Virus record (IMG/VR): IMGVR_UViG_3300050821_018098
Origin: a virus
Lineage: Duplodnaviria; Heunggongvirae; Uroviricota; Caudoviricetes
Length of the DNA stretch: 64,000 nt
Strand: one strand, 5' to 3'
Part shown: positions 7,080 to 56,653 of the stretch, in pieces
Numbering within the stretch: position 1 is the stretch's first letter
How the letters are laid out: each line of letters begins with the position of its first letter
Position numbers and translations under genes: made by a program
Notes under the pieces: model-generated
What the model was told of the DNA's origin: nothing
Database searches by the model: none
The model's input: only the letters and a program-made list of their open reading frames with translations

Positions 7080-9389
7080 TTGATGAACATATTACAATAC
7101 ACAACATCTACAAGTGGTACTATTACTTCACAAGATACACAACAAGATCTTCATATAATGCATGATGCCGGAGTCACAGCATCTCTTACAATAACTTTAC
7201 CTGCTACACCATTTAATGGACAAGAAGTAAAGATAACAAGTGTTAATGGAATATCATCATTAACATTAACTACTGGGGTAGGAACTATAGCAAACAATCT
7301 AACATCATTATCTGTTGGTGAATCTATAATATACAAATATCTTTCAAATCAAACAAAATGGTATTTAATTACTTCTATATCAGATATCATAGTCCCAAGA
7401 AGTAATCTACTTGCTGAATATAGATTTGATGAAGGTAGTGGTACTACTTTAACTGATTATTCGGGTAATGGAAATAATGGTACTTATGTAGGTAGTCCTA
7501 CTTTTATAAGTGGTGGTGGGTTTACCGCTTCTGGTTCTAGTTCTCCAGTCCAATATGCAACAGGTCATGCTAATTTTATTTTAACGGCACAGACTATTTA
7601 TCTAGTTTATAGCCCTGATGCTGATTCAGCTTCTACCAACCATCCGATAATGGGTAACAGTGGCGGTAATACTTATTTACAAATAGATCAATCAGACAAT
7701 ACTAATAATTCTCAATTTCCATCAGCTCATTTGTATGGTGGTACTGGATCAGGTTCAAGTGGAAAATGTTATAGTAATGATACTATACCATTATCACCAG
7801 CTATTGTAGCAGTTACTATAGATACAAATAATGCTATTCAAAGTCAAATATTTATAGAAGGTAAAGAAGTATTATCATATAATAGTAGAGCATTGAATAT
7901 TGCTTTAGGTCGAGGTGGTACACCTTGGTTTGGTGGTAATAATATAGGAAATTCTTTTGGTACATTCAACGGTAATATTTATTATGCTGCTTCTTATTCT
8001 ACTTTTCATACAGCTTCACAAGTATTACAAATTACTAATACAATAAGACAGTTATTGAATAACAGAGGAACAGTAAAACAAGATGTATATCAACCTTCTA
8101 CTTTAACTGGTCAATTACTAGCATTAGGTGATAGTATAACATGTATTAATGGAGTAGGTGGAGTAACACCTTATCTTAATAGTATAAGTACTAGAATAAC
8201 TTTCAATAAATATATTAAAGGATGGCCAGGTAATAGTTCCCAATTAGTATATGCAGCACCTGGATTATCATCTTTATATTATGCTCCGGCAGGGTCTTAT
8301 AATATTGTTAGTATTTTTCTTGGTACTAACATAATAAGTAATCAAAGTTTATATGAAGCTTGTTTTGAGGGTATAAAATCCATAGCTAAAGAATTTAAAA
8401 GAAAAGGCTGGCAAGTTTTAGTATTTACAATACCCGATAGAACTAATACCTACTCTTACATGGCTTCCTATAATGGATTATTAAGATCTTCTTTTACAAG
8501 AGATGAAATTGTTGATATAGCTGCTGATCCAAGATTAGGTACTAGTGGGGCTTCTACTAACCTTACTTATTTTCAAGCAGATCAAGTACATCCTACTAAT
8601 ACATCACAACTGTTGATAGCAGATTATTTATCAGCAAAAATCAATAGAATTACTAATTTCTCTATTGATAATAAAACATTATACTCACAAATTAACACAA
8701 GTACAGTCACAAATACTACTACAGAAACCTCAATAGTAGGTACATCTTCTGTAAATGATGTCGAATTCAATAATAGTGTATTCCTGTGTAATACTACTAA
8801 TGGTAATAATGTATTATCTGGACCTTTCTCAACTTCACAATTAGTAGTTGGTCAATTAATAACAGGTGCTGGAATCCCTACAAATACTACTATATCTAGT
8901 ATAACAGATAATAATCACTTGGTAATGAGTAATAATGCTAGTTCTAGTAATTCCAATACTGCTACAACATTTAGTTATATAGCAATGAAGCGACACTTTT
9001 TTGTTCCAGGTCAAATTATTGTTTTTGAACAAAAAGGATTGTTAACCACTGGAGTTTCACAAACTTTAAATAGAAAAGTAAAAATTGGAACTACTGTATT
9101 AGGTTCTACAGGTATAGTTACTTTACCTTCTAGTTTAACCAGTGCATTATATAAAATGAATTTAGTAGTTACCTGTGTTACAATTGGTACTTCTGGGACT
9201 TTTCAGGTACAAGGTGATTTATCAGTATATAATGGAAGCAATGGATACAGTATATACCCAATTTCAAATACTAGTGTAGTTACACTAGATACTACAATAG
9301 ATTCCATAATAGATATTACTGATATATGGGGATCTGCAAGTGCAAGCAATATCGATACATCAACAAATTTAAATATAATCAAATTATAA
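7080..9389 (+). CDS. tail fiber / receptor-binding protein with LamG-like (concanavalin-A-like) lectin domain and SGNH/GDSL hydrolase (esterase) domain
   Basis: N-terminal about 95 aa paralogous to fiber tip domain; LAEYRFDEGSGTTLTDYSGNGNNGTYVGSPTF (LamG_3-like); LLALGDSIT (GDS) and ADQVHPT (DxxH) SGNH motifs. Confidence 0.6.
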   Translation: MMNILQYTTSTSGTITSQDTQQDLHIMHDAGVTASLTITLPATPFNGQEVKITSVNGISSLTLTTGVGTIANNLTSLSVGESIIYKYLSNQTKWYLITSISDIIVPRSNLLAEYRFDEGSGTTLTDYSGNGNNGTYVGSPTFISGGGFTASGSSSPVQYATGHANFILTAQTIYLVYSPDADSASTNHPIMGNSGGNTYLQIDQSDNTNNSQFPSAHLYGGTGSGSSGKCYSNDTIPLSPAIVAVTIDTNNAIQSQIFIEGKEVLSYNSRALNIALGRGGTPWFGGNNIGNSFGTFNGNIYYAASYSTFHTASQVLQITNTIRQLLNNRGTVKQDVYQPSTLTGQLLALGDSITCINGVGGVTPYLNSISTRITFNKYIKGWPGNSSQLVYAAPGLSSLYYAPAGSYNIVSIFLGTNIISNQSLYEACFEGIKSIAKEFKRKGWQVLVFTIPDRTNTYSYMASYNGLLRSSFTRDEIVDIAADPRLGTSGASTNLTYFQADQVHPTNTSQLLIADYLSAKINRITNFSIDNKTLYSQINTSTVTNTTTETSIVGTSSVNDVEFNNSVFLCNTTNGNNVLSGPFSTSQLVVGQLITGAGIPTNTTISSITDNNHLVMSNNASSSNSNTATTFSYIAMKRHFFVPGQIIVFEQKGLLTTGVSQTLNRKVKIGTTVLGSTGIVTLPSSLTSALYKMNLVVTCVTIGTSGTFQVQGDLSVYNGSNGYSIYPISNTSVVTLDTTIDSIIDITDIWGSASASNIDTSTNLNIIKL

Positions 9390-9957: not shown

Positions 9958-10308
9958 ATGAATAAATATGTTCTTAATTTTGAGCAGTTTGTAAAAGAAA
10001 GCCAAAATATTGAAACCAATGAATTCTTTAGTTTTAAGAAAAAAGAATTATCACCTATACAGGAAGAATTAGATATGTTTTTAGATATCATAGGAAGTCT
10101 GGATGTGAAGTTTGACAGTTTATATGATATATCGGAAGCAGAAGCTAATAAAGCAAAAACAATAGCTGAACTTATGCATATAGTAAATAAAGTTCTAAAA
10201 GAATTAAAAGAAGTAAACTTTTTAAGTCCTGATGATATAAATGTAAAAGATAGTCTTGAAATTTTCAAAGAAGAGCTTGCTTCTAAGTCTATAGCAATGA
10301 ATGTTTAA
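9958..10308 (+). CDS. small acidic hypothetical protein with CTS-like N-terminus (MNKYVLNFEQFVKE)
   Basis: 116-aa ORF followed by terminator; N-terminal motif shared with five other ORFs. Confidence 0.4.
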   Translation: MNKYVLNFEQFVKESQNIETNEFFSFKKKELSPIQEELDMFLDIIGSLDVKFDSLYDISEAEANKAKTIAELMHIVNKVLKELKEVNFLSPDDINVKDSLEIFKEELASKSIAMNV

Positions 10309-10449: not shown

Positions 10450-11190
10450 ATGAATTTAACTAAACCAACAATTGACTGGTATCAGAAATTGAATCAATTT
10501 AAAAATGATGAATTCAAATTTTTTGAAGCTGAACATGAATACAAATATAAAGGAAAGAAATTTGAAAGTGTAACAACCTTTATAAGTCAATTTCATGAGA
10601 AGTTTGATTCTGATTATTGGAGTCAGATTAAAGCAGAAGAGCGTGGTATCACACAACAAGAAATATTGGCTGAATGGAAAGCTAAAGCTGATAGATCATG
10701 TGATCTTGGTACTATGGTTCATGAGTATGCTGAATACAAATGTGCCGGTAAAGAACCAAAAGAAGTAACTGATGAAGAAGTTAAAAAAAGAATCATAAGT
10801 TTAGAAGAAATATTTGAAACTAAACTGAAGAAGTTTATACCTGTAGCTCAAGAGATAAAAGTATTTTCACCTAAATTAAAACTTGCTGGCACCATAGATG
10901 GTTTATTTGAATATAAACAGAAGTTGGTTGTTGGTGATTATAAAACAAATGAAAAATTTACAACGGATAGTGATAAATGTTATAAAAAGCTTAATCCACC
11001 GTTTCAAAACAGATGGGAAAATAAATTAAATGAATACAGTATACAGGTATCAATGTACCGTCTAATATTAGAAGAATGGGGTATTGAAACTGAGGCAGCA
11101 TTTTTAATACATATTCCACCAGTTGGTAAATCAAATTTCCATATAGCACATGATTTTAGAAATGAATTAAAAATATTCTTTGGTATATAA
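10450..11190 (+). CDS. PD-(D/E)xK nuclease, RecB/lambda-exo/Cas4-like family (no Fe-S Cys cluster)
   Basis: GTIDGLFEY...VVGDYKT (motifs II/III) and QVSMY (QxxxY motif) characteristic of the RecB nuclease family. Confidence 0.5.
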   Translation: MNLTKPTIDWYQKLNQFKNDEFKFFEAEHEYKYKGKKFESVTTFISQFHEKFDSDYWSQIKAEERGITQQEILAEWKAKADRSCDLGTMVHEYAEYKCAGKEPKEVTDEEVKKRIISLEEIFETKLKKFIPVAQEIKVFSPKLKLAGTIDGLFEYKQKLVVGDYKTNEKFTTDSDKCYKKLNPPFQNRWENKLNEYSIQVSMYRLILEEWGIETEAAFLIHIPPVGKSNFHIAHDFRNELKIFFGI

Positions 11191-11197: not shown

Positions 11198-11237
11198 AAC
11201 CTTCCAAGTGTGCATCATAGAGAGGCATGGAAGGTTT
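11198..11237. terminator. putative bidirectional terminator hairpin between convergent genes
   Basis: aaccttcca...tggaaggtt 9-bp stem with a long loop, flanked by A-run and T-run. Confidence 0.4.
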
Positions 11238-11290: not shown

Positions 11291-11899
11291 TTACTTCTTA
11301 GCAGAAGGCTTTGGTTTACCAGCAGCTTCAGGAGTTGTAACTTTAGGTGTTACATCAGCTTTTTTATGTTTAGCAGCAGGTTTAGTTTCTGGCAAAGAAA
11401 GTTTACCCTTTTTATCTACTTTAGTAGATTTTTTAGCTTCACTTATACCTTCTGTTTCTTCAGGTTTGGTTTCGTCTGTTTCATCATCAGACATAGTATC
11501 ATCACCAAGACTATCACCCATATCTTCTGTAGAATCAGCAGCATCTGTTGTATCTTCTGCTACTTTTTCACAACAATCAGAAATTTCATCAAGGAATTTT
11601 AACATATCCTCTTTAGTAAACTCATCTTCACTACCTTCTAATTTATCTTTTAAATCAAGAATTTTAGTTTTTATATCAGCTAAAATATCATCAGCATCTA
11701 CTTCATCAGTTTCAGCATCAGTTACATCATCACCAACTTCTTTAGTTTCATCTGAAGTCATAGCATCATCAGCTGGTGCATCAGTCGATGCTGCTGGAGT
11801 TTCTAATTCATCATCAAAAGATTCTTCATTTTCTTGATTTGGTGAATAATTTTCTTTGAACATTTTCCATGTTGGTATTTTCCCGAAAGATTGTTTCAT
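11291..11899 (-). CDS. extremely acidic protein (Asp/Glu/Ser/Thr-rich) with Lys/Pro/Ala-rich basic C-terminal tail
   Basis: 202-aa ORF; body of DDE/TDE runs; C-terminus KKGKLSLPETKPAAKHKKADVTPKVTTPEAAGKPKPSAKK; overlapping plus-strand ORFs are low-complexity mirror frames. Confidence 0.5.
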   Translation of the reverse strand: MKQSFGKIPTWKMFKENYSPNQENEESFDDELETPAASTDAPADDAMTSDETKEVGDDVTDAETDEVDADDILADIKTKILDLKDKLEGSEDEFTKEDMLKFLDEISDCCEKVAEDTTDAADSTEDMGDSLGDDTMSDDETDETKPEETEGISEAKKSTKVDKKGKLSLPETKPAAKHKKADVTPKVTTPEAAGKPKPSAKK

Positions 11900-12052: not shown

Positions 12053-12718
12053 ATGACGAATTTCGAAAAATTTGCCAAAGGACAAGTAGGCTCATTAGCC
12101 TTACATGATTATGTGAACTATCAAAATAAGATGAAATCTTCTATGTCAGCTTATATTCTTGAAGAAAGAACAGGAAATCTTGCTGTAATGGATATATTTT
12201 CCAGACTTATGATAGACCGAATTATATTTTTAGGTACTGAGATAGATGATATAGTTGCAAATATTGTGAATGCTCAATTGTTATATCTTGACACAGATAA
12301 AGTAAATGAACCAATAAAAATATTTATTAATAGTCCTGGTGGTGAATGTTATAGTGGTCTTGCAATACTAGATTGTATGGATATAGTGAAGTCTCCTGTA
12401 GAAACTGTATGTTTAGGTTTGTCCGCAAGTATGGCTGCTGTTATTTTAGCTCATGGGACCAAAGGTTATAGAAAAGCTACACCAAGAAGCCGAGTGATGA
12501 TTCATCAACCTTCAGGAGGTGCTGGTGGAAACACAACACAAATTTCTATAACGGCTAAAGAATATGAAGAAGTTAAATTCATTTTAGCCGAAACATTAGC
12601 AATTGACACAGGAAAAACTACAGAGGAAATTCTTAATGATTTTGTTTTTGATAAATGGTTAAGTGCTCAAGCAGCTTTGGACTATGGTCTTATTGATAAA
12701 TTAGTTATGAAAAAATAA
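12053..12718 (+). CDS. clpP: ClpP-family serine protease (Clp protease proteolytic subunit-like; candidate prohead protease)
   Basis: GLSASMAAVI (Ser), MIHQPSGG (His), ALDYGLIDKL (Asp) catalytic-triad contexts typical of ClpP/S14. Confidence 0.8.
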   Translation: MTNFEKFAKGQVGSLALHDYVNYQNKMKSSMSAYILEERTGNLAVMDIFSRLMIDRIIFLGTEIDDIVANIVNAQLLYLDTDKVNEPIKIFINSPGGECYSGLAILDCMDIVKSPVETVCLGLSASMAAVILAHGTKGYRKATPRSRVMIHQPSGGAGGNTTQISITAKEYEEVKFILAETLAIDTGKTTEEILNDFVFDKWLSAQAALDYGLIDKLVMKK

Positions 12719-12729
12719 AAAGTAAAACA

Positions 12730-13302
12730 ATGACACTAAATTGGTACGCTGTAAGAATATTAAACAATCAAGAAAATAAAGTAAAAACTTATCTTGATAG
12801 GGAGTTTATTAGAAATATAACCGGAGAATACTTAAATGAAGTATTGATTCCTGTAGAAAGATATTATGAGAAAACTAAAGATGGTAAAAAGAAACTTATA
12901 GAAAAGAAATTATTTTCTGGTTATGTGCTTATTAAAGCTGACTTAAGTAGAGAAATAGTATTGGATACAATTAAAAAAACTCCTGGTATAATTGGGTTTT
13001 TGTCTTATAAAGACAACAATAAATCATCTATACCAACACCTCTAAAAGAAAGAGAAGTTGCTCAATTTTTAGGTAGAGGATCTGATTTAACAGAAGAACA
13101 ATCAACTGATTCTGATTTGTATATCATTGGTGAATCTGTAAGAATAACAGATGGTCCATTTAAAACATTTTTTGGTGAAGTTAAAGAAATTTATGAAGAC
13201 AAGAAGAAAGTAGTAATTGATGTTACTATATTTGGACGTATCACACCAGTCGAAGTTGATTTTAAACAAACAGAAAAAGCCGAACAGAATGTTAAGGTAT
13301 AA
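12730..13302 (+). CDS. nusG: transcription antitermination/elongation factor NusG homolog
   Basis: WYAVRILNNQENKV (NGN), FSGYVLI, and KOW region GESVRITDGPFKTFFGEVKEI...IFGRITPVEVDFKQTEKA closely matching E. coli NusG [21 protein letters not shown]...IFGRATPVELDFSQVEKA. Confidence 0.8.
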   Translation: MTLNWYAVRILNNQENKVKTYLDREFIRNITGEYLNEVLIPVERYYEKTKDGKKKLIEKKLFSGYVLIKADLSREIVLDTIKKTPGIIGFLSYKDNNKSSIPTPLKEREVAQFLGRGSDLTEEQSTDSDLYIIGESVRITDGPFKTFFGEVKEIYEDKKKVVIDVTIFGRITPVEVDFKQTEKAEQNVKV

Positions 13303-13303
13303 A

Positions 13304-13332
13304 AAAAATCCCGGTTAAACCGGGATTTTTTA
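13304..13332 (+). terminator. rho-independent terminator
   Basis: atcccgg-ttaaa-ccgggat followed by tttttt. Confidence 0.8.
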
Positions 13333-13379
13333 TTTAAAATATATTCAAACTAAATAAGATTTAAGGAATATAAATTCAT

Positions 13380-15215
13380 ATGATAAATGATAAAATACAA
13401 GGTACCATAAACCATAAAAATATTGATTTTGCTTTGGTAGAATTTGAAGATGGTGGTTCTCTTAAAGTAAAAAGTAAAAGCCTTAATAAGGCTCTACATG
13501 GAGATCTTGTTGAAATAGGTATAGAAGGTAAAGAATACTTTGTAAGTAAAATAATTCAAAGAAGTATACAACATAAAATTAAAGGACAATTAAAAATAAA
13601 TAAAAATTTAACTTTTTTTGTTCCTCAAGAATCAAATTATTATACAGATTTCTTCATACCAACAAAGTTTTATCTCCAAGGTATGGATGATAAAGATTAT
13701 GTAACAGTTGAATTTTTAAGCTGGGGTGATAAAGATAAGAATCCAACAGCGAAGATTTTAAGTATAGATGGTAACAAATTTACACCAAGGATAGCTACTA
13801 AATTTTTAATCAATGAAATGAATCTTAGGACAGATTTTCCTAATTCTGTTATAGCCCAGGTAGAAAGAATTGAAATTACTGATGATATGTTAATAGGTCG
13901 AAAAGACTTTAGACAACATTTAACTTTTACAATAGATCCAGCAACAGCCAAAGACCATGATGATGCAATATCAATAGAAAAAACAGATAAAGGTTATAGG
14001 GTTGGTATTCATATTGCTGATGTGTCAGCTTTTGTTACACCAGGTACAGCTTTAGATATTGAAGCTTTTGAAAGAGGATGTTCTGTCTACTTAGTGGATG
14101 AACATATACCAATGCTTCCAGAAAAACTATCATCCGATCTATGCAGTCTTATACCAAATGTAGATAGATTATCTTTTTCTGTAATATATGATATAAGTAA
14201 TGAATATAAAATTGAAGGTTACTGGGTTGGAAAAACAATTATTAATTCAAATGAAAATATTTCATATGAAGAGGCCCAAGCAATTTTAGACGATAATGAA
14301 CACAAGTATCATGAAACATTATCTATTTTAAATGATATAGCAGAGTATTTTACTAATACTAGAGAATCTATAGATTTAGAGGCTCCAGAACTCGAATTTA
14401 CACTTGATGAACAAGCATTTCCTATAAAAATAGGTTTGAAAAAAAGACTTGCTACACATAAGTTGATAGAAGCTTTTATGCTTATGGCTAACCAAACTGT
14501 AGCAGAAATACTTAGTAACTATGGTCCAGGTATATACCGAGCACATCCTAAACCAAGCAAACTACAAATATTAGAAATGTATGATTCATTAAAAAAAATG
14601 GGTCTTACTTTAAATTTAAGTGAAGAAGATATAAAGAAAAGTTTGGATGAATTAAAAAGTAATACTCCAGAAGAATTAACTTCTACTGTTCGTGATACTA
14701 TTCTTAGGAGTCTACCAAAAGCCTATTATACTTCAGATGTTGAGGTAGGACACTTTGGTTTAGGGTTTAAATATTACACACATTTCACATCGCCTATAAG
14801 AAGATATCCTGATATCATCGCACATAGATTATTAAATTGTGTAATAGAAAAGAAACAATCTCTTATAACAGATCTTGAATCTAAAGCTGTACTTTTGAGT
14901 AAACGTGAAAAAGTTGCTCAACAAACTGAAAGAGAATCAAGCAGCCAAAAAATGACATTGTTTATGGAGACAATTAATTATCCCATATCAGCTAAAATAG
15001 TAAGTATAAAAGATTGGGGTGTATTTGTGAAGACTGAATTATTATCCGAAGGACTCATACCTATTCATAGTCTGAAAGGTAAATATAAAGATGGTGTAAT
15101 GAAATGCCCCAACTTTACGCTAAAAGTTAATGACTATCTAGTTGTGAAAAAAGAAAGATGTGATTTAAAAAATAGAAGAGTTTATTTCGAACTATTACAA
15201 AAGAAAATTTACTAA
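13380..15215 (+). CDS. RNase II / RNase R family 3'-5' exoribonuclease (RNB domain + C-terminal S1)
   Basis: RNB motifs DDAISIE, GIHIADVSAFV, SVYLVDEHIPMLP, HFGLGFKYYTHFTSPIRRYPDIIAHR; C-terminal S1-like VKIVSIKDWGVFVKT. Confidence 0.8.
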   Translation: MINDKIQGTINHKNIDFALVEFEDGGSLKVKSKSLNKALHGDLVEIGIEGKEYFVSKIIQRSIQHKIKGQLKINKNLTFFVPQESNYYTDFFIPTKFYLQGMDDKDYVTVEFLSWGDKDKNPTAKILSIDGNKFTPRIATKFLINEMNLRTDFPNSVIAQVERIEITDDMLIGRKDFRQHLTFTIDPATAKDHDDAISIEKTDKGYRVGIHIADVSAFVTPGTALDIEAFERGCSVYLVDEHIPMLPEKLSSDLCSLIPNVDRLSFSVIYDISNEYKIEGYWVGKTIINSNENISYEEAQAILDDNEHKYHETLSILNDIAEYFTNTRESIDLEAPELEFTLDEQAFPIKIGLKKRLATHKLIEAFMLMANQTVAEILSNYGPGIYRAHPKPSKLQILEMYDSLKKMGLTLNLSEEDIKKSLDELKSNTPEELTSTVRDTILRSLPKAYYTSDVEVGHFGLGFKYYTHFTSPIRRYPDIIAHRLLNCVIEKKQSLITDLESKAVLLSKREKVAQQTERESSSQKMTLFMETINYPISAKIVSIKDWGVFVKTELLSEGLIPIHSLKGKYKDGVMKCPNFTLKVNDYLVVKKERCDLKNRRVYFELLQKKIY

Positions 15216-27437: not shown

Positions 27438-28658
27438 TCACAAATAGAGTTCTTGTTTAAATTGTGAATGCCATAAATTCTCAACATGATTTGTAAATAT
27501 TGGCTGAATCATAGCTAGATTACTTTTCTGAAAATAAACAGAATCGTGAACAGTGAAAAGAACTGTCTTAGGATCCTCTTTCTTAATGTCTTTAACAATA
27601 TTATCAAACATTAAAGTTGATTCTATCTTCTGTAACTCCCAGGATAAGGCTCTATAATCGTTAATTTTGTATTTATATTCACTTATCCATCTGTATATTT
27701 TAGGATATATTTTTTTGAATATATTATTGTGCCAACAATGTATAGATTTACCAAAGAAAACTTTAAATATAAGTTTTTTTGCATCGTTCCTAGTAATATC
27801 TGCCTCATTCATAAAATCTTCATAAAACTCACCCTTCCGGACAGCGTTAACAAATCTATCTAATTCATCAGAATCAGAGAAGCCAGACTCTTTAAGAATA
27901 ATTGCTAAGAATAATGGTTGTGCATTTGGTATATCAAGTTCTTCTATCTGTTCACCATGTATAGTCAAGCAATTACTTCTTATATTTTTCTTTAATACAG
28001 TGAAATTTGTATGCATCCTACCAAATTTATCAAATGACCAGAAAAATGATTCGTCTGCAATAGATTCAATACTATATTGGTTTTTTCTATATTGACTTAA
28101 TCTTAAACATCCTATATCATAATAGTTATTTAATAATCTTGCAGCTTTTTCAAAATCAAGTTTTATAAAGTATAAATCTTCTATAAGAGATTTACGAACA
28201 GGATCCAATTCTTTTTGATATCCAGAGGGTTCATCCATATGTGATAACTTATAATCACGCCATTTCTTCATATAAACATTATCAGTACATTTCACCCGGA
28301 TACAGTGTCCCTTACTCACATCACTAGTTAAAGCATAAGTCTTTGCTTTATAACCTACACGGTAATTTGATATCATATCAATAAAACCAACTTGTTCTAA
28401 ATATGAAATATATGCCTTATAGTATCCACCATATTTTTCTTTCACAATATCAGCACAAAGATTTAATGTATCATGACCATTGAAGTGATAATTGATTACA
28501 AAAGTGTGTATCAGATCAAAAAGATAATCTGTTTTAAGATTTTTATTTCCTGACTCAATACTTCTATGTTCTCTCAGGAAGCCTAAGTTTTCAGGGATAA
28601 ATCTTAACACATGTGTCTTATCCATTATTTTTTGTACGAAAAATTCAGATTTATTCAT
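27438..28658 (-). CDS. minimal family-A (PolA/T7-like) polymerase-domain protein lacking exonuclease domains
   Basis: Motif A-like ELDIPNAQPLFLAII (D...Q...LA), motif B/O-helix-like RNDAKKLIFKVFFGKS (RxxAKxxxFxxxFGxS vs RRxAKxxNFGxxYGxS), motif C-like LFTVHDSVYFQ (VHDE-like), in A-B-C order with A-B spacing like Klenow. Confidence 0.5.
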   Translation of the reverse strand: MNKSEFFVQKIMDKTHVLRFIPENLGFLREHRSIESGNKNLKTDYLFDLIHTFVINYHFNGHDTLNLCADIVKEKYGGYYKAYISYLEQVGFIDMISNYRVGYKAKTYALTSDVSKGHCIRVKCTDNVYMKKWRDYKLSHMDEPSGYQKELDPVRKSLIEDLYFIKLDFEKAARLLNNYYDIGCLRLSQYRKNQYSIESIADESFFWSFDKFGRMHTNFTVLKKNIRSNCLTIHGEQIEELDIPNAQPLFLAIILKESGFSDSDELDRFVNAVRKGEFYEDFMNEADITRNDAKKLIFKVFFGKSIHCWHNNIFKKIYPKIYRWISEYKYKINDYRALSWELQKIESTLMFDNIVKDIKKEDPKTVLFTVHDSVYFQKSNLAMIQPIFTNHVENLWHSQFKQELYL

Positions 28659-28939
28659 AAATTATAAAAGGGAAATGTATTAGTTATGTTGCATACTTTA
28701 TGAAAAGTTTTTCTTGTGTAGATAAATATTTAGAAAAAAGTTATTGATAGTACAAAATATATACTAGCAAATTCGCATTACTAACTTAATGAAACATTCG
28801 AATGATATAATTAAAAATTTACGCCTGGAAATAGTAAAAAAGGCTAAAGATTATCAAAGAGATCTTAGAATTGTATACTTGGCTGCATCTACAGAAGTCC
28901 TTAAAGAAGGAGTTAAGGCTAAATAAATTTTTCTTCATA

Positions 28940-29104
28940 TTTTTACCTTCCATTTGAGATGCTTCCACAACTTACAAGGATTTAAGGAAGTGGTTATGGA
29001 ACGGTGTTTTTACCTTCCATTTGAGATGCTTCCACAACAGCAACTCCATATGTCGTAATGAAATAAGGGGTGTTTTTACCTTCCATTTGAGATGCTTCCA
29101 CAAC
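28940..29104 (-). CRISPR. CRISPR-like mini-array: 3 direct repeats (32-35 nt) and 2 unique spacers (31-35 nt), no cas genes in window
   Basis: TTTTTACCTTCCATTTGAGATGCTTCCACAAC at 28940, 29007, 29073. Repeats 2-3 are preceded by GTG, repeat 1 by TA (degenerate terminal repeat). Spacers ttacaaggatttaaggaagtggttatggaacg and agcaactccatatgtcgtaatgaaataagg are unrelated to each other. On the minus strand the repeat reads GTTGTGGAAGCATCTCAAATGGAAGGTAAAAACAC. Confidence 0.6.
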
Positions 29105-29401
29105 ATATCTAGTATAAGTGTCTGTGTATCACTGTATTTCATATTATATTCAGTATAAAGAATATTCCAGATAGATTCATAACTAACATACAAGATATCA
29201 TTTTTCTTATTGTAATACATCCAGGTAAATCCTTCAATATCTTTGAATATTATATTACCCAGATATTCTACATCTAATGAAATAGTAAGCTTTTCTAAAA
29301 TAGAAACAAAGAATGCTTCTGTACTGATTGTTTTTGTTTTAATTATAATTTCTGAAAACATATAGACAAAAGTATGATATAATAATCAAATTAACAATTT
29401 T

Positions 29402-30672: not shown

Positions 30673-31215
30673 ATGATGGAACTCCTTAATGAATTTACAA
30701 AAGCAGAATTGATATTTTTCTGTATTGGTATTATAGCAACTGTACTATTTATAATTCAAACTTCACTAAGCTTTATTGGTACTGATGATATTGAATTTGA
30801 TACTGAAGAAGGTTTCGAAATATTAACAATCAAAAATTTAGTTATTTTTATGATGATCTTCGGTTGGTCTGGAATGGTTGCTATTGATAGTTTTAAATTA
30901 CAAATTTCCTCTTCCATAGTATTCTCTTTTACTATTTCAGTACTAGTAATTTTTATACTATCCGGTATAGTATATTTTATGAGTAAGATGAAACATGATG
31001 GTACAATTAAAATGGAGAATTGTATTGGTAAAATAGCTCAGGTGTATCTGAATGTAAGTCCCCAAGGAATGGGTAAAGTAACATTATCTGTTCAAGGAGC
31101 TTATAGAGAATTCGATGCTATATCAAAAAACAAAGTTTATATACCATCAGGAGCCAATGTAAAAGTCACAGGATTTCAAGATAATATTCTTGAAGTAGAA
31201 ACAATTAATTCATAA
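30673..31215 (+). CDS. NfeD-like membrane protein (partner of SPFH/flotillin proteins)
   Basis: N-terminal TM helices, C-terminal beta-rich OB-like segment GKIAQVYLNVSPQGMGKVTLSVQGAYREFDAISKNKVYIPSGANVKVTGFQDNILEVE; located directly upstream of flotillin-like gene as in yqiJ-yqiK. Confidence 0.5.
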   Translation: MMELLNEFTKAELIFFCIGIIATVLFIIQTSLSFIGTDDIEFDTEEGFEILTIKNLVIFMMIFGWSGMVAIDSFKLQISSSIVFSFTISVLVIFILSGIVYFMSKMKHDGTIKMENCIGKIAQVYLNVSPQGMGKVTLSVQGAYREFDAISKNKVYIPSGANVKVTGFQDNILEVETINS

Positions 31216-31240
31216 TTTTAAACAAATATAAATCACAACT

Positions 31241-32773
31241 ATGTACTCAATAATTTTAGCATCCTTAATTTTTGTTGTATTATTTGCAACAGTATACTCT
31301 ATTTTCAAACGCTATAAAAGATGTCCATCGGATAAAATACTCGTAATCTATGGTAAAGTAGGTGGTGAAAATAGTTCTAAATGTATCCATGGTGGAGCAG
31401 CATTTATATGGCCGGTCTTCCAGGAATCAACTTTCCTTGATTTAAAACCAATTGCTCTCAAAGTAGATGTTGACAAAGCATTATCGAAACAAAACATTCG
31501 ACTCAATGTTAAGTCTAATTTCACTATAGGTATATCTACAGAACCAACAATCATGACTAATGCTGCTGAAAGGCTTCTTGGTTTACAAACAACTAGTATA
31601 TCGACATTGGCTGAAGATATCATTGTTGGTCAGCTAAGACAAATAATTTCTTTAATGGATATTGAAGAAATAAATACTGACCGGGATAAATTCTTGACAA
31701 ACATTCAGAGTAACGTTGAAAATGAACTTAAGAAAATCGGTCTAAAATTGATTAATGTCAATATTGTTGATATTAAAGATGAATCTGGGTACATTGATGC
31801 TCTTGGTAAAGAAGCTGCTGCTAAAGCCTTAAATGATGCTAAAAAATCTGTAGCAGAAAAAGACAGAGATGGTGCCATCGGTGAAGCTGACGCAAATCAG
31901 GATAAGATAACTAAAGTATCTAAGCTTACAGCTCAATCGGAGATCGGTAAAGCAAATGCCGAAAGAGAGAAACGTACTAATATAGCTGATGCCAATGCTT
32001 TAGCAGTAGAAGGTGAAAACACGGCACAGATTAAAATAGCTAAGTCTGAAGCAGAAAAGAGAGAAGCTTTAGCTCAGGCAAATAAAACAGCAACTGTAGC
32101 TGAACAAGTTGCTCAAGCAAAAGCTAAAGAAGAATCATACTCAGCACAAACAAAAGCTGAGTTAGCTCGTGCTGAAATGTCAAAAGCTACCAAAGAAGCA
32201 GATATTATTGTTGATACTGATATAGCAAAGAGAAAACTTGTTATTGAGGCTCAGGCCGAAGCTGAATCATTAATAGAGAAAGCTAAAGGTCAAGCTAATT
32301 CAGCTATTGAAATCGCTAAAGGTGAGGCCGAATCAGTATTTCTGAAACTTGAAGCTGAAGCAAAAGGTAATTATGAAATTTTAGCTAAACAAGCAAAAGG
32401 TTTCGAAGAACTTGTTAAAGCTGCCGGAGGAGATCCTAAAACAGCGATTCAATATCTTATCAGTGAGAAAATAGTAGAGATTTACAAAATCCAAGCAGAT
32501 GCTATACAAAATATCAAAATTGATAAAATTACTGTATGGGAAAACGGTGGAGGAAAAGATGGTGGATCTTCAACAACAAATTTCATCAATAGTCTTTTAC
32601 AAGCAATTCCACCAAATGCTGATCTTTTGAATATGGTGGAACAGAGTCTTCCTGGATTCTTAGATGCTATAAAGACTAAAGAAATTAAAGAAATTAAAGA
32701 AAATCAACCAGTTTTGGTGACAGGTGCTGGAAAAGAAAATAATAATAATAATTCACAATTACTTAAAAGCTAA
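31241..32773 (+). CDS. SPFH/band-7 flotillin-like protein (YqiK/FloT family)
   Basis: N-terminal TM anchor then PSDKILVIYGKVGG...IHGGAAFIWPVFQESTFLDLKPIALKVDV SPFH core; long Ala/Glu/Lys-rich coiled-coil typical of flotillins. Confidence 0.75.
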   Translation: MYSIILASLIFVVLFATVYSIFKRYKRCPSDKILVIYGKVGGENSSKCIHGGAAFIWPVFQESTFLDLKPIALKVDVDKALSKQNIRLNVKSNFTIGISTEPTIMTNAAERLLGLQTTSISTLAEDIIVGQLRQIISLMDIEEINTDRDKFLTNIQSNVENELKKIGLKLINVNIVDIKDESGYIDALGKEAAAKALNDAKKSVAEKDRDGAIGEADANQDKITKVSKLTAQSEIGKANAEREKRTNIADANALAVEGENTAQIKIAKSEAEKREALAQANKTATVAEQVAQAKAKEESYSAQTKAELARAEMSKATKEADIIVDTDIAKRKLVIEAQAEAESLIEKAKGQANSAIEIAKGEAESVFLKLEAEAKGNYEILAKQAKGFEELVKAAGGDPKTAIQYLISEKIVEIYKIQADAIQNIKIDKITVWENGGGKDGGSSTTNFINSLLQAIPPNADLLNMVEQSLPGFLDAIKTKEIKEIKENQPVLVTGAGKENNNNNSQLLKS

Positions 32774-32779
32774 TTTACT

Positions 32780-33790
32780 ATGATACTAATACTTGCAATT
32801 CTTGTTACAGTGTCGGGCTTCTTTGCCGGCCTTATCCTATCTTTCATGGGTTTAGATATATCTGATTTAGAAAGAAAAGCGAAACTTGGTGATAAAAGAG
32901 CAACCAAGATATTACCGTTAAGAAGAAAGAGTAATCAATTACTCTCCACACTTATGATGTGTAATGTGTTTATCAACTCAACAATTTCAACCTTTATGTC
33001 TGAAGGTGGTAATGGTGGAATAACATCTATAATCATATCAGCATCATTGATCTTAGTTTTTGGTGACATTGTGCCTACAGCAATCTGTAATAAATATAAA
33101 ATGTCTATAGCATCATATACAACACCTTTGGTTTACGTCATGTTTTATATTTTATGGCCTATAACTTATCCATTATCATATGTTCTTGACAGATGGCTTC
33201 ATGTTGAAATGACAACAATGTTTACTAAGAATGAAATAAAAGAAATTATTCATGCTCATGAAAAACACTCTACTATAGATACACACGAAAAGAATATTAT
33301 GATCGGTGGTTTAACTTATTCTTCTAAGTCTGTTCTTGATATTATGACACCTATAACACAACTTTATCGTATTAATATAGATAAGCCGGTGACATTAGAA
33401 GAATTAAAGAAACAAAATTATGCAAGGGTTCCTGTATATCAGGGTACTAGAGATAATGTTATTGGAATATTATTTCTTAAAGATCTTGTCGGAGAATCTT
33501 CTGTACAAATAGATGTTGCTAAGAAATACAGACAGGATGGTATCATAAAAGTTATGGAGACAGAAAAACTTGATGTCTTGCTTAACAAGCTTATAAAACA
33601 ACAAGTACACATGTCTTTTGTATATGATCAGTATGGTACATTAAGAGGCGTTGTAACAATGGAAGATATTTTAGAAACCATTATTGATCGTGAAATTTTA
33701 GATGAATCTGATTTAATTGTAGATCATCAAGAAGAAGCGAAAAGAACTTTTGATATCGAAAAAACTTCTGAGTTAGAAAAAATATCATAA
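32780..33790 (+). CDS. CNNM/CorC/TlyC-family membrane protein (DUF21 transmembrane domain + CBS pair)
   Basis: N-terminal DUF21-like TM domain (ILAILVTVSGFFAGLILSFMGLD...LSTLMMCNVFINS) followed by two CBS-like segments (IMTP..., VPVYQG..., HMSFVYDQYGTLRGVVTMEDILE). Confidence 0.65.
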   Translation: MILILAILVTVSGFFAGLILSFMGLDISDLERKAKLGDKRATKILPLRRKSNQLLSTLMMCNVFINSTISTFMSEGGNGGITSIIISASLILVFGDIVPTAICNKYKMSIASYTTPLVYVMFYILWPITYPLSYVLDRWLHVEMTTMFTKNEIKEIIHAHEKHSTIDTHEKNIMIGGLTYSSKSVLDIMTPITQLYRINIDKPVTLEELKKQNYARVPVYQGTRDNVIGILFLKDLVGESSVQIDVAKKYRQDGIIKVMETEKLDVLLNKLIKQQVHMSFVYDQYGTLRGVVTMEDILETIIDREILDESDLIVDHQEEAKRTFDIEKTSELEKIS

Positions 33791-44853: not shown

Positions 44854-45837
44854 TTAAAACTCAACGGTATCATCAAAGCTTAAATCATTCTCTTCTTTTG
44901 TATTACCAGTATGAGCCTTTTTGTAATCACTTACTCTCTTCTCAAAGAAGTTCGTCTTACCCTGAAGACTAATAAGCTCCATAAATGGAAAAGGATTAGC
45001 TGTACCGAATACTTTACTGTATCCCAGGTTAACTAACCAAAAATCAGCTACAAACTCTATGTACTGAGACATAGCTGTTGCATTCATACCAATTAAAGAT
45101 ACGGGCAATGACTCTGTAATGAATTCTTTTTCTATCTCTACAGCACTCAATATAATTTCTTTTACTCTTTCTTCTGTAAGCTTGTTTTCAAGCATAGAAT
45201 AAAGAAGGCACGCAAACTCACAGTGGAGCCCTTCATCACGGCTTATAATTTCATTAGAAAAAGTTAGACCAGGCATAAGTCCTCTTTTCTTTAACCAGAA
45301 GATAGAGCAGAAAGAGCCGGAGAAGAAAATTCCTTCAACAGCAGCAAATGCAATAAGTCTTTCTGCAAAACTATCAGCTTTAATCCAACGAAGTGCCCAA
45401 TCAGCCTTTTTCTTTACAGCTGGTAAGTTTTCATGAGCATTAAAAAGCATATCCTTTTCTACGGGATCTTTTATATAAGTATCAATAAGTAGAGAGTATG
45501 TTTCTGAATGTATATTCTCCATCATAATTTGAAACCCATAAAAACATTTAGCTTCAGGAATTTGAACTTCTTTTAAGAAATTTTCAGCAAGATTTTCGTT
45601 TACAATTCCATCAGAAGCAGCGAAAAAGGCTAGAACATATTTAATAAAATGTCTTTCATTATCATTAAGTTCTTTTTCCCAATGTACCTGATCTGGAGAT
45701 AAATCTATCTCTTCGGCTGTCCAAAAAACAGCCTGACAATCCTTATACATTTTCCATATTCGATCATATTTAATCGGAAAAAGAACAAATCTATTTTTGT
45801 TCTCCATTAACAAGGGCTCCATTATCTGTTTATTCAT
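44854..45837 (-). CDS. nrdB: ribonucleotide reductase class Ia small subunit (R2/NrdB)
   Basis: [39 protein letters not shown] iron-ligand/tyrosyl-radical motifs; likely start at MNKQIME (track ORF extends to 45885). Confidence 0.9.
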
Positions 45838-45944
45838 ACTAAAATATTTTTTATTTTTTACAAAGATATAAAATAAAAGCATCACTTTTATATGATGCTT
45901 TTAAAAAATTTTTAATTACATAACTTATTGATTATCAATAAGTT

Positions 45945-48900
45945 CTATGATCCACAAGCCTCACAATTTTCTGGATTATCAAGTGAACAGGATAGTTGAC
46001 TACTAGATTCATCTTCAGTAATTGTTGTAAGTATATCTACTTTCACTGTAGCTTTTTGCTCTACAGTAAATTGAACAGCATCAATACCGGTTTGTGTTCT
46101 TAGATAATACATACCTGTTTTTAAAGCTTTTTGTGGTGTAGTACCATATTTAACATCTAACTCAGATTTAGTAACTCCACCACCCCATCCATAGAAATGC
46201 ATACCATTAAGTTTAGCAAAATTAGGATCTTTCATATAGATATTCATTGATTGTGTTTGATCCATATAAGCTCCACGATCAGCATATTGATCAATAACAT
46301 CTTTTTGACTAATTTCCCAAACTGTTTTGAAAATATCTTTGATATCCTGAGGTATAATATCTATATTTTGTATAGAACCTTTACCACGAATAATCTCATT
46401 CTTCATTGCTTCAGTCCAAAGGCCTCTTTCACAAAGAGTTTTAACTAAATATTTATTTAATACAACAAATTCACCTGAAAGAAGTCTTCTTGTATAAATG
46501 TTAGAAGTTTGAGCTTCGCAACTAGCTTCATTACCAAATATACTTGCTGTTGAAGCTGTAGGCATAGCACAAGTAATCAAACTGTTTCTTATACCATACT
46601 GTTTAATTTTATCTTTTAATGCATCCCAATCGTATCTACCTGGTTCTGGAACTATATTCCACATATCGAATTGAAGAGTACCTTGTGATGCTGGAGAGCC
46701 TTCAAATGTTTCATAAGGACCATCTTTTTTAGCCAAATCACAAGATGCTTTCATAGAAGAATAGTAAATAGTTTCAAATATTTGTTTATTTAAAATTTTT
46801 GCTTCTTCTGAGGCAAAAGGAATTTTTAATTTGAAATATACATCAGCTAAACCTTGTACTCCAAGCCCGATAGGTCTGTGTTTCAAATTAGATTTTTTAG
46901 CTTCTTCTACAGGATAATAGTTAATATCAATAACTTTATTCAAATTAACTGTCGCAACATAAGCAACTTCTTCCAATTTTTTAAAATTAAATGTACCATC
47001 ATCTTTAACAAATCTTGGTAAACATAATGATGCAAGATTACATACAGCTACCTCATCAGGAGCAACATATTCAACGATTTCAAGGCATAAATTCCCATTT
47101 TTTATAACACCAATATTTTTTTGATTAGATTTTACGTTAATCGAATCTTTATAAGCAATATATGGAGCACCAGTTTCAATTTGAGATTCCAATATTTTTT
47201 TCCATAGATCCCGAGCTTTAACTTGTTTTTTGAACTTACCTTCCAGTTCATATTTTTCATAAAGAGTAACAAAATCATCCCCATAAACATCCATTAATCC
47301 AGGAGATTCATTAGGACACATTAAACTCCATACAAGATCTTTCTCAACACGCTGCATAAATAAATCACACATCCATATAGCAGTAAACAAATCTCTTGTA
47401 CGCATCTCTTCTTTACCATTATTCTTTCTTAAATCAAGAAAGTCAAATATATCAGCGTGCCATGGTTCTAAGTACATGGCAAAACTTCCTTTCCTTTTCC
47501 CACCCCCGTTATGAGCTAAACCTATATGTGTAACATACTCATGATTTGTGTCTATTTCAAAATCATATACATTCCCAGCATACTTCGTTTTATTAATATC
47601 AGTAATTCTTGTATAAAGATAATTATCATGCACCATGAAGTTAACCCATTCACCAACTTCTATATTAAACAAATCAGCAATATCTTGAACTTTAGGTATT
47701 CTTATACAGTAACTAACTTTAGCATGTTTACGACCAGATGTATACTCGATATTTCTTCTGTCTCTGATATAACCGGAAGTAAATATACCAAACCGCATTA
47801 ACATATATCTTGTAGATTCAATTACATTTCTTGAAGTCATTTCCAGAGTCAATTCTTTAGAAATACATCCATCAGAGAGCATTAAGCCTTTAAACAAACC
47901 AAGACTTTTATCTTTTGGTAAATGTAAAAGATTTTTATGTATTATTTTTTCAGCATTATGATCATAAAAATATTCCCTATTAAATTTAAATCTTTCGTTT
48001 ATACAAAAATAAATTACTGTCATATTAGGATGATATGTATCATCTAATATAGAATATTTTATTATGTTATCATTAAGATACTGTTCAACAAAAGCTAAAG
48101 CTTCTATATCAGTATTTTCTAAATATATTTTACACTCTGTACTTTCTTTATTAATATACCCATCACCAACAATAATACCATACATTATAGCATCACTAAC
48201 AGAAATACTCGAAATATCTTTTTCATAATTCACTATTGGTGTTACTAGAAAATCATCAACCTTCAAATCTTTTGTTTCAATCCATTCAGGTTTTATTATT
48301 CCTTTTTCCAACCTGTTTTTAATAACAGAATAATTTACGCCTTTCTCTTGTTGTAAAGTAAACATTGGATGTTGTGTTGTAACAATTACTGGATCGATAG
48401 AATGTTTTGTTTCAATAGCAAGAAAATCTTTATGTTGAGCTGGATAACGTCTTGTTCTAAGGACTTCTTGAAATGTTCCATCACTAGTTAAAACTTTATC
48501 ACCTATTACTATTTTACCTATTTGTTTTGGTCCTTCAATAGTATAAATAATAGTTTCATAAGCGAAACACTGATCTACATAGCGAGCTGTGTCATTGTAT
48601 ACACGAAGCATTGGTACAATACCGTTAGAAGTACCATTGGTACCTTTAATATAGGATCCTGTTGCTCTAATATTAGAAATAGAAATTCCTATACCACCAG
48701 CAGCTTGTGAAATTTTAGCACATTGTTTTAATGTGTCATATATTCCATCTATTGAATCGTTTTTCATTTGTAATAAAAAACATGAGCTCATTTGCGGCTT
48801 TTGCGTTCCAGCATTGAATAAACTAGGTGTGGCATGTGTGAAATAAAACTGTGAAATTAAGTTATATGTTTTGATTGCACTCTTAATATCTTTACCATGA

Positions 48901-49451
48901 ATACCAACAGCAGTTCTCATAAAAAGATATTGGGGTCTTTCTATAATTTTCCCGTCAATTTTTAATAGATAAGATTTTTCTAAAGTTTTAAATCCCATAT
49001 AATCCAAAAGAAAATCTCTTGTTTGAATTATAGCTGCATCTATTTCATCTTTGTTTTCTTGAACTATATCATTGAATTCTTTTGAAACAAGTGGTGCATG
49101 TTCACCATTTTCTTTGTTTACATAATCGTACATTTTCTGAGATGTTTCAGAAAAACTTTTGAATGTTTTTTTGTAGAGATTTGTAATAGCTAATCTCGCA
49201 GCTAGATAAGAATAGTCAGGATGTTTTACTGTTAAAACAGCAGCCGTCTCAACGGCTAAATTGTCTAATTGCTCCGATGTAACACCATCATAAAGACCTT
49301 CTACTACTTTTTGTGCAACCTCACTTGGGTTCACCCATAATCTATCTAAGCTAAAGGTTTCACGCTCAATCCTTCCGTAAATTTTATCAAGATTTACGGT
49401 CTCTTTTTTTCCATTACTTTTAATAACTTGCATATTCGTTTTGTAATCCAT
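45945..49451 (-). CDS. nrdA: ribonucleotide reductase class Ia large subunit (R1/NrdA, eukaryote/T4-like type) interrupted by a 354-aa intein
   Basis: ATP-cone N-terminus; [20 protein letters not shown] | intein | [23 protein letters not shown] matches R1 core; C-terminal catalytic NCxE region and C-terminal CxxC tail (CEACGS). Confidence 0.9.
47508..48569 (-). mobile_element. intein (Hint domain + double-LAGLIDADG homing endonuclease) inserted in nrdA between VDQ and GGGKRKG
   Basis: Block [14 protein letters not shown]..., block [10 protein letters not shown] (TxxH), LAGLIDADG motifs [11 protein letters not shown] and [13 protein letters not shown], block [22 protein letters not shown]; +1 residue is Gly (verified at DNA level: gct cat aac ggg ggt ggg aaa). 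Confidence 0.75.
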
Positions 49452-56176: not shown

Positions 56177-56653
56177 TTAGAAATCTTCATTTCTTATTAA
56201 AATATCATACTCTGTGAAGCCTTTAAACATTTCATAATCAGCTAATAATCTTCTTGTAACAAGATCAGCATCTCTTCTTTTAGAAAGTCTTCGTTCTCTA
56301 ACGACAGCCTCTACATTAAGATATATTATTGTTGATTCTTTACGCTGCTCAGTTGACAGTTTAGCTACGCCTGGAGGAGTTAATATAAATAAATCATATT
56401 TCTCCCAGGCATCCTTGGCTGAACCATAATACCAACCGTTAAAACAATCATATTCCAGAAGACCGTCATTATCTATGAGATTTTTGAAATATTCATCATT
56501 TACAAACCAATAATCTATACCATCCGTTTCATTTTCCCTTGGTGGTCGTGTTGTATAACTGATAGAATAATTATATCCTTTATTTTGTAATTTATGTCTT
56601 AGATGATCTTTACCACTACATCCAGCACCCACAAGAATAATTTTGTTACCCAT
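56177..56653 (-). CDS. gmk: guanylate kinase-like nucleoside monophosphate kinase
   Basis: P-loop ILVGAGCSGKD and guanylate-kinase signature SYTTRPPRENETDGIDYWFV. Confidence 0.8.
   Translation of the reverse strand: MGNKIILVGAGCSGKDHLRHKLQNKGYNYSISYTTRPPRENETDGIDYWFVNDEYFKNLIDNDGLLEYDCFNGWYYGSAKDAWEKYDLFILTPPGVAKLSTEQRKESTIIYLNVEAVVRERRLSKRRDADLVTRRLLADYEMFKGFTEYDILIRNEDF

Follow-up and report, generated by a model that had tools for sequence, protein, structure and literature searches.

The 64,000-nucleotide (nt) stretch of DNA analysed here, hereafter the window, comes from a virus assigned to the Caudoviricetes (IMG/VR record IMGVR_UViG_3300050821_018098) and carries a short array, three repeats separated by two spacers, with the architecture of CRISPR. 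The first repeat of this array is also the coding 3′ end of a small open reading frame (ORF). As judged from comparison with related sequences, the element is a member of a class in which a small conserved phage gene stands in the place of the leader and its coding 3′ end in that of the first repeat. The gene-plus-array module is widespread and recurs, with no cas genes nearby, in many large uncultured phages, and no description of such a class was found in the literature that could be searched. With a probability of roughly 55%, such arrays grow by CRISPR-type integration at the junction of ORF and repeat, most likely through host machinery acting in trans.

The first-pass annotation, made from the letters of the window, had described a 32-nt unit present three times and separated by two unrelated sequences, neither of which obviously matched the window. 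All of this was confirmed. The exact unit, TTTTTACCTTCCATTTGAGATGCTTCCACAAC on the plus strand, occurs at 28940, 29007 and 29073, no other copy with up to 3 mismatches is present in the 64 kb and matches were found in none of 100 shuffled sequences; the two spacers have no relation to each other or to other parts of the window. Identity between copies 2 and 3 extends over 37 nt (29003-29039 and 29069-29105), and copy 1 deviates from them solely in 4 nt on the 5′ side of the plus strand, where it has CATA in place of GGTG. The GTG extension reported for two of the copies is part of this GGTG, but the repeat is 36 nt rather than about 35 nt long. Read on the minus strand, the array consists of the repeat GTTGTGGAAGCATCTCAAATGGAAGGTAAAAACACC at 29104-29069, 29038-29003 and 28971-28936 (Table 1), the last of these being located 3′ of the stop codon of the ORF and so untranslated. 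Near-identical repeats in the 23-50 nt range with unique spacers of constant length, as in CRISPR arrays generally, are present both in the window and in its relatives. Neither window spacer has a match in INPHARED or PLSDB, and their exact cores are absent from IMG/VR. Scans for promoters and terminators gave results at chance level only. A short-read assembly of this phage (Logan contigs L001 and L002, SRR7102015) is broken within repeat 3 (28969), as expected at repeats; a second break in the same assembly falls exactly at the start codon of the ORF (29363), where there is no repeat, and may reflect a population variant.

Table 1. The gene and array of the window, and related gene-plus-array loci.
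Feature or locus	Position or contig	Strand	Description
ORF, 129 aa	28972..29361	-	extends across repeats 1 and 2 and both spacers
Repeat 1, ORF-proximal	29069..29104	-	GTTGTGGAAGCATCTCAAATGGAAGGTAAAAACACC; also the last 12 codons of the family domain
Spacer 1, 30 nt	29039..29068	-	CCTTATTTCATTACGACATATGGAGTTGCT; presumably the newest
Repeat 2	29003..29038	-	same as repeat 1 over all 36 nt
Spacer 2, 31 nt	28972..29002	-	GTTCCATAACCACTTCCTTAAATCCTTGTAA; final 3 nt are the TAA stop of the ORF
Repeat 3, terminal, ORF-distal	28936..28971	-	first 32 nt exact; last 4 nt degenerate (TATG vs CACC)
L004/L005/L016	126-, 241- and 336-kb contigs		one module, 4 repeats
L006			2 repeats
Paralogous modules	OCZT010000001.1 (336 kb)		at least 5 separate modules, 2-6 repeats each
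	OCZT010000712.1		as many as 8 repeats
L073, L075, L076			distant lineages, own repeat variant in each
L077-L083	seven IMG/VR viral contigs		all true members; some duplicates of each other or of earlier loci

The region 29105-29400 had been taken for an AT-rich leader. Positions 29105-29361 are, instead, the body of a conserved protein-coding gene with repeat 1 as its C-terminal coding segment, and a non-coding leader of the kind envisaged is not found there. Residues 1-97 of the encoded protein constitute the conserved domain of a family, with one helix (alpha1) followed by four beta strands and two further helices (alpha2 and alpha3). Residues 86-97 (MLWKHLKWKVKT) are encoded by repeat 1, and residues 98-129 are a read-through of spacer 1, repeat 2 and spacer 2, with the result that WKHLKWKVKTP occurs twice in the protein, via the in-frame repeats 1 and 2. 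A stop codon before repeat 1 is absent both in the window phage and in the phage of locus L003, its closest relative. Among 5.8 billion proteins searched, an identical copy of the ORF is on record on a 167-kb contig together with one 75%-identical relative, P0002, on the 158-kb contig of L003. Over residues 13-64, 48 of 52 amino acids (aa) are identical between the ORF and P0002, with 8 silent and 4 conservative changes, a codon pattern that indicates purifying selection on the protein.

A profile of residues 1-98 identified 152 proteins at E≤1e-3, mostly of 90-150 aa, among 1.84 billion cluster representatives. Most of the alignments extend to profile positions 93-98, the repeat-encoded part, and the family alignment has the C-terminal motif ..M..KH[LF]K[WLI][KR]..TP throughout. 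The AlphaFold model of the family domain, based on 79 sequences, is confident (predicted local distance difference test score, pLDDT, of 90), and in this model helix alpha3 (residues 76-91) enters the repeat-encoded segment, which begins at residue 86. The family is without annotation; fold relatives in PDB and BFVD are limited to uncharacterised phage proteins, and tblastn searches of deposited phages with two family ORFs returned nothing. An exact self-repeat of the C-terminal motif is present in 39 of 153 small family proteins (at least 25%), at a spacing of exactly 22 residues, corresponding to 66 nt, in 36 of the 39. The count is a lower bound, as copies that are out of frame or that follow a stop codon are invisible in proteins. 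At L007 (4979-9984), the family ORF is present as three to four paralogs in tandem over 5 kb, with no detectable arrays, and long multi-domain family proteins also exist, for example P0003 (760 aa, 5 matched stretches).

At DNA level, 13 gene-plus-array loci with about nine distinct repeat variants were examined, and in all 13 the array starts in the last 12 codons of a family ORF (hidden Markov model (HMM) E-values of 1e-7 to 1e-45). The repeats are 36 nt long, the spacers are unique and 27-31 nt long, and there are 2-11 repeats per array. Within this range, 17 of the initial 26 spacers (27-31 nt) are exactly 30 nt, and those collected later, from L073, L075, L076 and L077, are 30-31 nt; besides the period of 66 nt, periods of 63, 64, 65 and 67 nt occur. 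In L003, the ORF leads into GTTGTATAAGCATCTCAAATGGTCGGTAAAAACAC, followed by an unrelated 29-nt spacer and another copy, in which 15 of the first 18 nt are retained before the sequence decays. Spacer content differs between related phages, paralogous modules within one genome have near-identical repeats and, across the family-bearing contigs, with guanine-plus-cytosine (GC) contents of 21-44%, the repeat sequence co-varies with the lineage of the ORF. A search of IMG/VR for relatives of the window locus by means of its flanking sequence returned nothing. At L015 (11534-11970) and L039 (5298-5785 in minus-strand coordinates), the family ORF is split by a frameshift upstream of a perfect array of 5-6 repeats, as a result of either pseudogene formation or an assembly error; frameshifted ORFs upstream of intact arrays indicate that arrays can outlive an intact ORF.

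The order of repeat variants within the arrays bears on how they were built. The first-pass annotation had read the window array on the minus strand with its degenerate copy at the far end, and this is borne out by relatives, the ORF-distal repeat being degenerate also in L003, L004, L018, L070, L073 and L077, and so in at least seven arrays. The array at L077 has 11 repeats and 10 spacers (30 nt in nine cases, 31 nt in one), with the repeat variants in layers: repeats 1-7 have ..GCG..GGC.., repeat 8 has ..GCG..GGG.., repeats 9-10 have ..GCA..GGG.. and repeat 11 is decayed after 16 nt. The same layered pattern is seen at L041, where two older single-nucleotide polymorphisms mark the distal repeats. 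Layered variants and degenerate distal repeats are as expected if the current ORF-embedded repeat is copied and about 30 nt are inserted at the ORF end. Although read from static sequences, they point to polarised growth at the ORF end, and such growth is the signature of CRISPR-type integration.

It is very improbable that the copies are instead an ordinary protein tandem repeat, that is, a copied C-terminal peptide motif, or an iteron, a set of binding sites for a replication or regulation protein. A peptide repeat would agree with the in-frame reading of repeats 1 and 2 and with the exact 22-aa spacing in most of the proteins in which the motif recurs, but 36+30 is divisible by 3, and any 66-nt period therefore keeps the frame. 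Copy 3 of L004 is out of frame and is still conserved, as are copies that follow the stop codon (window repeat 3, copy 4 of L004 and copy 4 of L076). Periods that leave the frame and copies beyond the stop argue that this is not a protein repeat. The pairwise identity among 35 spacers is 0.264, versus 0.261 in shuffled sequences, whereas repeats within an array are identical or nearly so at DNA level, and the shuffle-level identity of the spacers excludes duplication of the whole 66-nt unit followed by divergence. Stop codons are present in 10 of the 35 spacers in the coding frame, in 6 in frame +1 and in 20 in frame +2; with in-frame stops not specifically depleted, selection for translation of the spacers was rejected. 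An iteron would not be expected to have layered variants and degenerate distal copies, and the dispersed copies that might identify one are absent from the window. CRISPR architecture had been preferred over both of these readings from the outset, and relatives with 36-nt repeats, unique spacers of about 30 nt, variable content and layered variants uphold that preference. The array had also been expected to fall if the region proved to be the C-terminus of the overlapping ORF. Repeat 1 is indeed coding, but the array stands, because later copies are out of frame or follow the stop codon.

The repeat is conserved beyond what it encodes. The consensus of eight repeat variants is G.TGT..AAGCATCTCAAAT..A.GG.A..AACACC, in ORFs that are only ~30-45% identical in protein sequence. 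The leucine of the motif is encoded by CTC in every lineage that has this leucine, while CTC makes up 2-6% of leucine codons (14% in L076); both motif lysines are always encoded by AAG and the threonine always by ACA. Calculated from the codon frequencies, the chance of CTC throughout in five independent lineages is ~1e-7. Frozen synonymous sites imply that the DNA or RNA itself is under constraint, and on this codon evidence the repeat is constrained as a nucleic acid in addition to its constraint as protein. Family-wide, the repeat begins with GGTG and ends with ACACC, the ORF-distal ACACC (GGTGT on the other strand) being the invariant part. The GTTGTG beginning that had been likened to type II-C and VI-B repeats is therefore a trait of one lineage, and the identity of the window repeat with the PspCas13b repeat ends after the first 10 nt, a comparison of little weight, for which 23 nt of the reference were confirmed. 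Direct repeats of type VI-B (Cas13b) systems are 36 nt long, their ends (GUUG...CAAC) are complementary and they contain an internal stem whose loop is U-rich. The length is shared, but no cas13b was seen near the arrays.

Spacers differ from their surroundings in composition. Their GC content (0.33-0.60) is higher in every case than that of the locus that carries them (0.28-0.31), which suggests an outside origin. The sole match among 47 unique spacers is that of the oldest spacer of L077 to a gene 2 kb upstream on the same contig, with 27 of 30 positions identical versus a maximum of 20 of 30 in shuffled sequences. The match, between 7939-7968 and 10074-10103, is to the sense strand of an unannotated gene (7916-8536), and the three differences are all transitions. 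From this match, at least some spacers appear to derive from phage DNA, that of the carrier itself or of a close relative.

A repeat shared with a host was sought in several collections. The exact repeat and its 24-nt core are absent from the viral, genome and metagenome collections, and the host repeat family that the first-pass annotation had hoped to identify was not found in any of them. Searches of metagenomes with the two-copy core produced 60 matches, most of which were rejected as an unrelated archaeal-style CRISPR repeat that shares a 13-mer. This genuine CRISPR repeat, present at L013, L014, L017 and L019-L023 and at ~40 metagenome loci, ends in ...AAGCATCTCAAATAGAGAATTGAAAG and contains the 13-mer AAGCATCTCAAAT by chance; its ATTGAAAG handle is what we take to be archaeal-style. 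As had been stated, there are no recognisable cas genes in the window: no Cas or TnpB family of Pfam is represented among ORFs of at least 150 aa, a screen above the size of proteins such as Cas2. The only window ORFs longer than 900 aa encode a tail-fibre-like protein and an intein-containing ribonucleotide reductase, and no ORF is of Cas9 size. Cas genes are likewise absent from the neighbours of 10 related arrays, which include TnpB (two loci), a nucleotidyltransferase, PcfJ-like proteins, DnaJ/ClpB, methylases, a GIY-YIG endonuclease and a baseplate protein; none of these is conserved, and the genes flanking the window array have no homologs in 196 kb of family loci. The TnpB/Cas12f-like genes are located 1-2 kb from arrays of two lineages, at L004 1525-3261 (-), which is the same as L016 6155-7891 (+), and at L006 6128-7111 (-). 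They encode proteins of 578 and 327 aa with Cas12f1-like TNB and OrfB_IS605 domains and are the only genes near any array that resemble RNA-guided nucleases; with two loci only, the association was judged coincidental. Just downstream of the window array, on the same strand, is an ORF of 406 aa (27438-28658, -), with no sequence match in Pfam, PHROG or PDB and no homolog near other arrays, in which DxPNAQP and TVHDS strings are, by eye, reminiscent of family-A polymerase motifs.

Known viral elements that lack cas genes offer one explanation for these results. Virus-borne CRISPR mini-arrays have reportedly been described by Faure et al. in 2019 and by Medvedeva et al. in 2019 (SPV1/SPV2), and RNA anti-CRISPRs (Racrs), solitary repeat units, are said to have been described by Camara-Wilpert et al. 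in 2023. In mini-arrays and Racrs, the repeats are identical to those of the host (PMC11656645, PMC10120712); viral mini-arrays are reviewed in PMC11656645 and compact arrays of huge phages are described in PMC7162821. If the window element were a classical orphan mini-array or a solitary-repeat mimic, host Cas proteins would either be loaded with phage guides against rival phages or be jammed as by a Racr, and the overlap with the ORF would be incidental. In favour of such an account, which we consider unlikely, are the array architecture without cas genes, the published precedents (PMC11656645), the 36+30 geometry, equal to that of Bacteroidota II-C and VI-B arrays, and the one spacer that matches a phage gene with 3 mismatches, as do spacers aimed at relatives. 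The arrays resemble viral mini-arrays in being short, on viral genomes and without adjoining adaptation or interference genes, in having a degenerate distal repeat and unique spacers and in the imperfect match of at least one spacer to a phage gene. They differ in that no host-identical repeat was met in any searchable collection and that most spacers of known mini-arrays are directed against related viruses, whereas here there is one self or relative match in 590 kb and the other 46 of 47 spacers match no known phage or plasmid. The first repeat is, furthermore, always the coding 3′ end of one conserved family and changes with that family. Overlap with the ORF at 13 of 13 loci and in at least 39 of 153 family proteins is not incidental. 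Array-less family members do carry a single repeat-like unit, for which a decoy role like that of a Racr is conceivable, but a Racr is a small non-coding RNA in imitation of one specific host repeat, whereas the unit here is coding, has neither a detectable host counterpart nor a predicted structure and is often accompanied by real spacers.

The arrays could also be integration decoys or scars. The gene 3′ end would then attract the host spacer integrase, by chance or as an evolved trait, and the arrays would record mis-integration into phage DNA, the products being either neutral scars or a selected "spacer sink" by which prespacers are kept from the host array; transcripts would have no guide function. 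We regard this as doubtful. Off-target "neo-CRISPR" integration is a recognised concept, reportedly described by Nivala et al. in 2018, and in both cases a repeat-spacer-repeat structure arises at a non-CRISPR site through duplication of a repeat-length target; neo-CRISPR events are, however, rare laboratory events at random genomic sites, unlike the family-wide reuse of one gene end with up to 11 repeats seen here. Scars or decoys would be in keeping with the lack of an effector and of a host-matching repeat, with the presence of more than one module in a genome (one 336-kb contig has at least 5) and with arrays that persist downstream of frameshifted ORFs. Spacers that are richer in GC than the phage, one of them phage-derived, are also reminiscent of the mixed host and phage origin of spacers in arrays filled in trans (PMC8092290). 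Synonymous sites frozen across distant lineages argue, on the contrary, for selection, although a selected decoy predicts the same; arrays with as many as 11 near-perfect repeats, together with a prevalence of 25% or more, are much to ascribe to neutral accidents, and the account would require integration during lytic growth into DNA that is later packaged.

A system belonging to the phage itself would have the small protein bind RNA or DNA of its own 3′-end repeats and would have a phage writer, unrelated to known Cas proteins, encoded elsewhere in the genome. The strict coupling and co-evolution of ORF and repeat across phages of 21-44% GC are what such a system would produce, as are a segment that codes for part of a folded helix and is at once a constrained nucleotide element, the absence of fold relatives beyond uncharacterised phage proteins and the near-identical repeats of paralogous modules in one genome. 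It is nevertheless distinctly improbable: there is no candidate writer or nuclease, catalysis by a 97-aa protein is unlikely, arrays survive frameshifts in the ORF, the 36/30 geometry is that of known host systems and nothing else is conserved beside the module. Put more broadly, as a hitherto unknown autonomous adaptive or recording module of phages, the dual-coded end of the gene would act as a dedicated site of integration, and possibly as the RNA or DNA ligand of the protein, served by a phage writer unrelated to Cas1-Cas2, with paralogous modules in jumbo phages; in a milder form the module would be an anti-adaptation "spacer sink" that diverts the host integrase and so shields the phage population. 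This broader proposal has an outside chance of being correct.

We favour array growth by CRISPR-type integration at the junction of ORF and repeat. A conserved phage gene of ~97 codons would serve as the leader, with its last 36 nt as the first repeat, and each new unit would be made at the ORF end by duplication of the ORF-embedded 36-nt repeat and insertion of ~30 nt of foreign DNA. The reaction would be of the type catalysed by the Cas1-Cas2 integrase with a ruler mechanism, which is established for CRISPR arrays (summary in PMC8092290). Genes for an integrase or effector adjoin none of the arrays, and both the writer and a reader, if there is one, would therefore act in trans. The likeliest writer would be the CRISPR adaptation machinery of the host, probably a member of the Bacteroidota with a II-C-type module, and the leading guess for function is that, in the course of infection, host Cas proteins are engaged by guides or decoys from the arrays. 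The first-pass annotation had offered three functions for an orphan array, hijacking of a host system, an RNA decoy or a remnant of spacer acquisition; the data favour none of these, and the coupling to an ORF family was not anticipated.

For filling in trans, the best available analogy is provided by Flavobacterium columnare, in which spacers are ~30 nt long. The II-C and VI-B repeats of this bacterium are both 36 bp and share only a leader-distal GTTGT (Hoikkala et al. 2021, PMC8092290), and its VI-B array, which lacks cas1, receives spacers of host and phage origin through the II-C machinery acting in trans (PMC8092290). The phage arrays have in common with these II-C and VI-B systems of Bacteroidota the 36-bp repeats, spacers of ~30 nt, polarised growth, acquisition with no local cas1 or cas2, a probable host in the Bacteroidota and a conserved leader-distal pentamer, GTTGT there versus GGTGT here (complementary strand). 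They differ in having no cas9 or cas13b in view and no tracrRNA-like (trans-activating CRISPR RNA-like) anti-repeat, in a repeat that is otherwise unrelated, in a leader that is protein-coding and in being located on phage DNA.

Several results weigh against integration by host machinery. Change of the repeat with the ORF lineage, in phages of such different GC content, fits poorly with mimicry of one host repeat family. A two-copy pattern of the 13-nt core found no array in 185,579 bacterial and archaeal species representatives, the 4 matches being plain tandem repeats, although this negative is limited by the phage host not being identified and by the poor assembly of arrays in metagenome-assembled genomes. 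CRISPR-DR families of Rfam gave no match, and a permissive threshold gave noise only. No cas genes were seen in the window or in the ~196 kb of related loci; these sequences cover a portion of each phage genome, and the phages may encode an integrase or effector farther away. The anti-repeat or tracrRNA that had been suggested as a target for searches was not found above chance in the window or in L003, where the best candidate, with 22 of 36 positions, is like other chance-level matches in the window, although a tracrRNA may be encoded by the host. No significant fold of the repeat was detected on either strand (z-score 0.74), and neither an internal stem nor a consensus RNA structure (alifold) was found; the repeat ends, G(G/U)UGU and ACACC, are complementary in 82.5% of cells but without covariation. 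For 46 of the 47 unique spacers there is no match in INPHARED, PLSDB and 590 kb of locus DNA. Finally, array-less family members retain the same C-terminal motif, from which it follows that protein-level selection accounts for part of its conservation.

Since overlap with an ORF usually leads CRISPR finders to reject an array as a false positive, a whole class of virus-borne arrays may have been overlooked. If the arrays are filled in trans during infection, they would be natural records of the DNA sampled by a spacer integrase in infected cells, and phages could own leader-repeat junctions without owning cas genes. A C-terminus that doubles as a repeat raises questions about the origin of arrays and their leaders and about whether phages turn decoy sites of integration or guide RNAs against host immunity or rival phages. 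The HMM of the ORF combined with a 66-nt period provides a compact signature for searches of metagenomes.

The window, with a GC content of ~30%, encodes the intein-containing ribonucleotide reductase, ThyA, a DnaB-type helicase, RecA, UDG, an RNase R-like nuclease, ClpP, NusG-like and sigma-like proteins and the giant tail-fibre-like protein, and it has no DNA-level match in deposited phages. The replication proteins are closest (40-49% identity) to those of uncultured huge phages of 630-735 kb, with Prevotella Lak phages more distant. The unannotated LR7565xx records are presumably the huge-phage genomes of Al-Shayeb et al. Five genomes of >634 kb were, like the Lak phages, predicted to infect Bacteroidetes (PMC7162821). 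A type IX secretion system (T9SS) sorting domain is encoded on one family-bearing contig and, because of this domain and the phylogenetic neighbours, sequence data suggest a host in the Bacteroidota.

Several further features of the window were recorded. Host-like genes are many for a phage and are located at 12053-15215, 30673-33790, 56177-56653 and 62555-63635; they encode ClpP, the NusG-like protein, the RNase R-like (RNB) nuclease, an NfeD/band-7 (flotillin-like) pair followed by a CNNM/CBS protein, guanylate kinase, a sigma-70 region-2 protein and a TnsA-like endonuclease. The gene for the large subunit of ribonucleotide reductase (45945-49451, -) is split by an intein with a LAGLIDADG homing endonuclease domain, and the small subunit gene adjoins it at 44854-45885. 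At 11199-11234 (-), there is a match to the abiF RNA motif of Rfam (RF03085; 38.5 versus a gathering threshold of 37 bits, E 0.002), flanked by a PD-(D/E)XK-like ORF (10450-11190, +) and by a 202-aa ORF without annotation (11291-11899, -), with no recognisable AbiF gene downstream. A 189-nt tandem repeat of 2.6 copies with 81% identity (4125-4622, +) is located within the 1862-aa DUF5907 tail-fibre-like ORF at 1479-7067.

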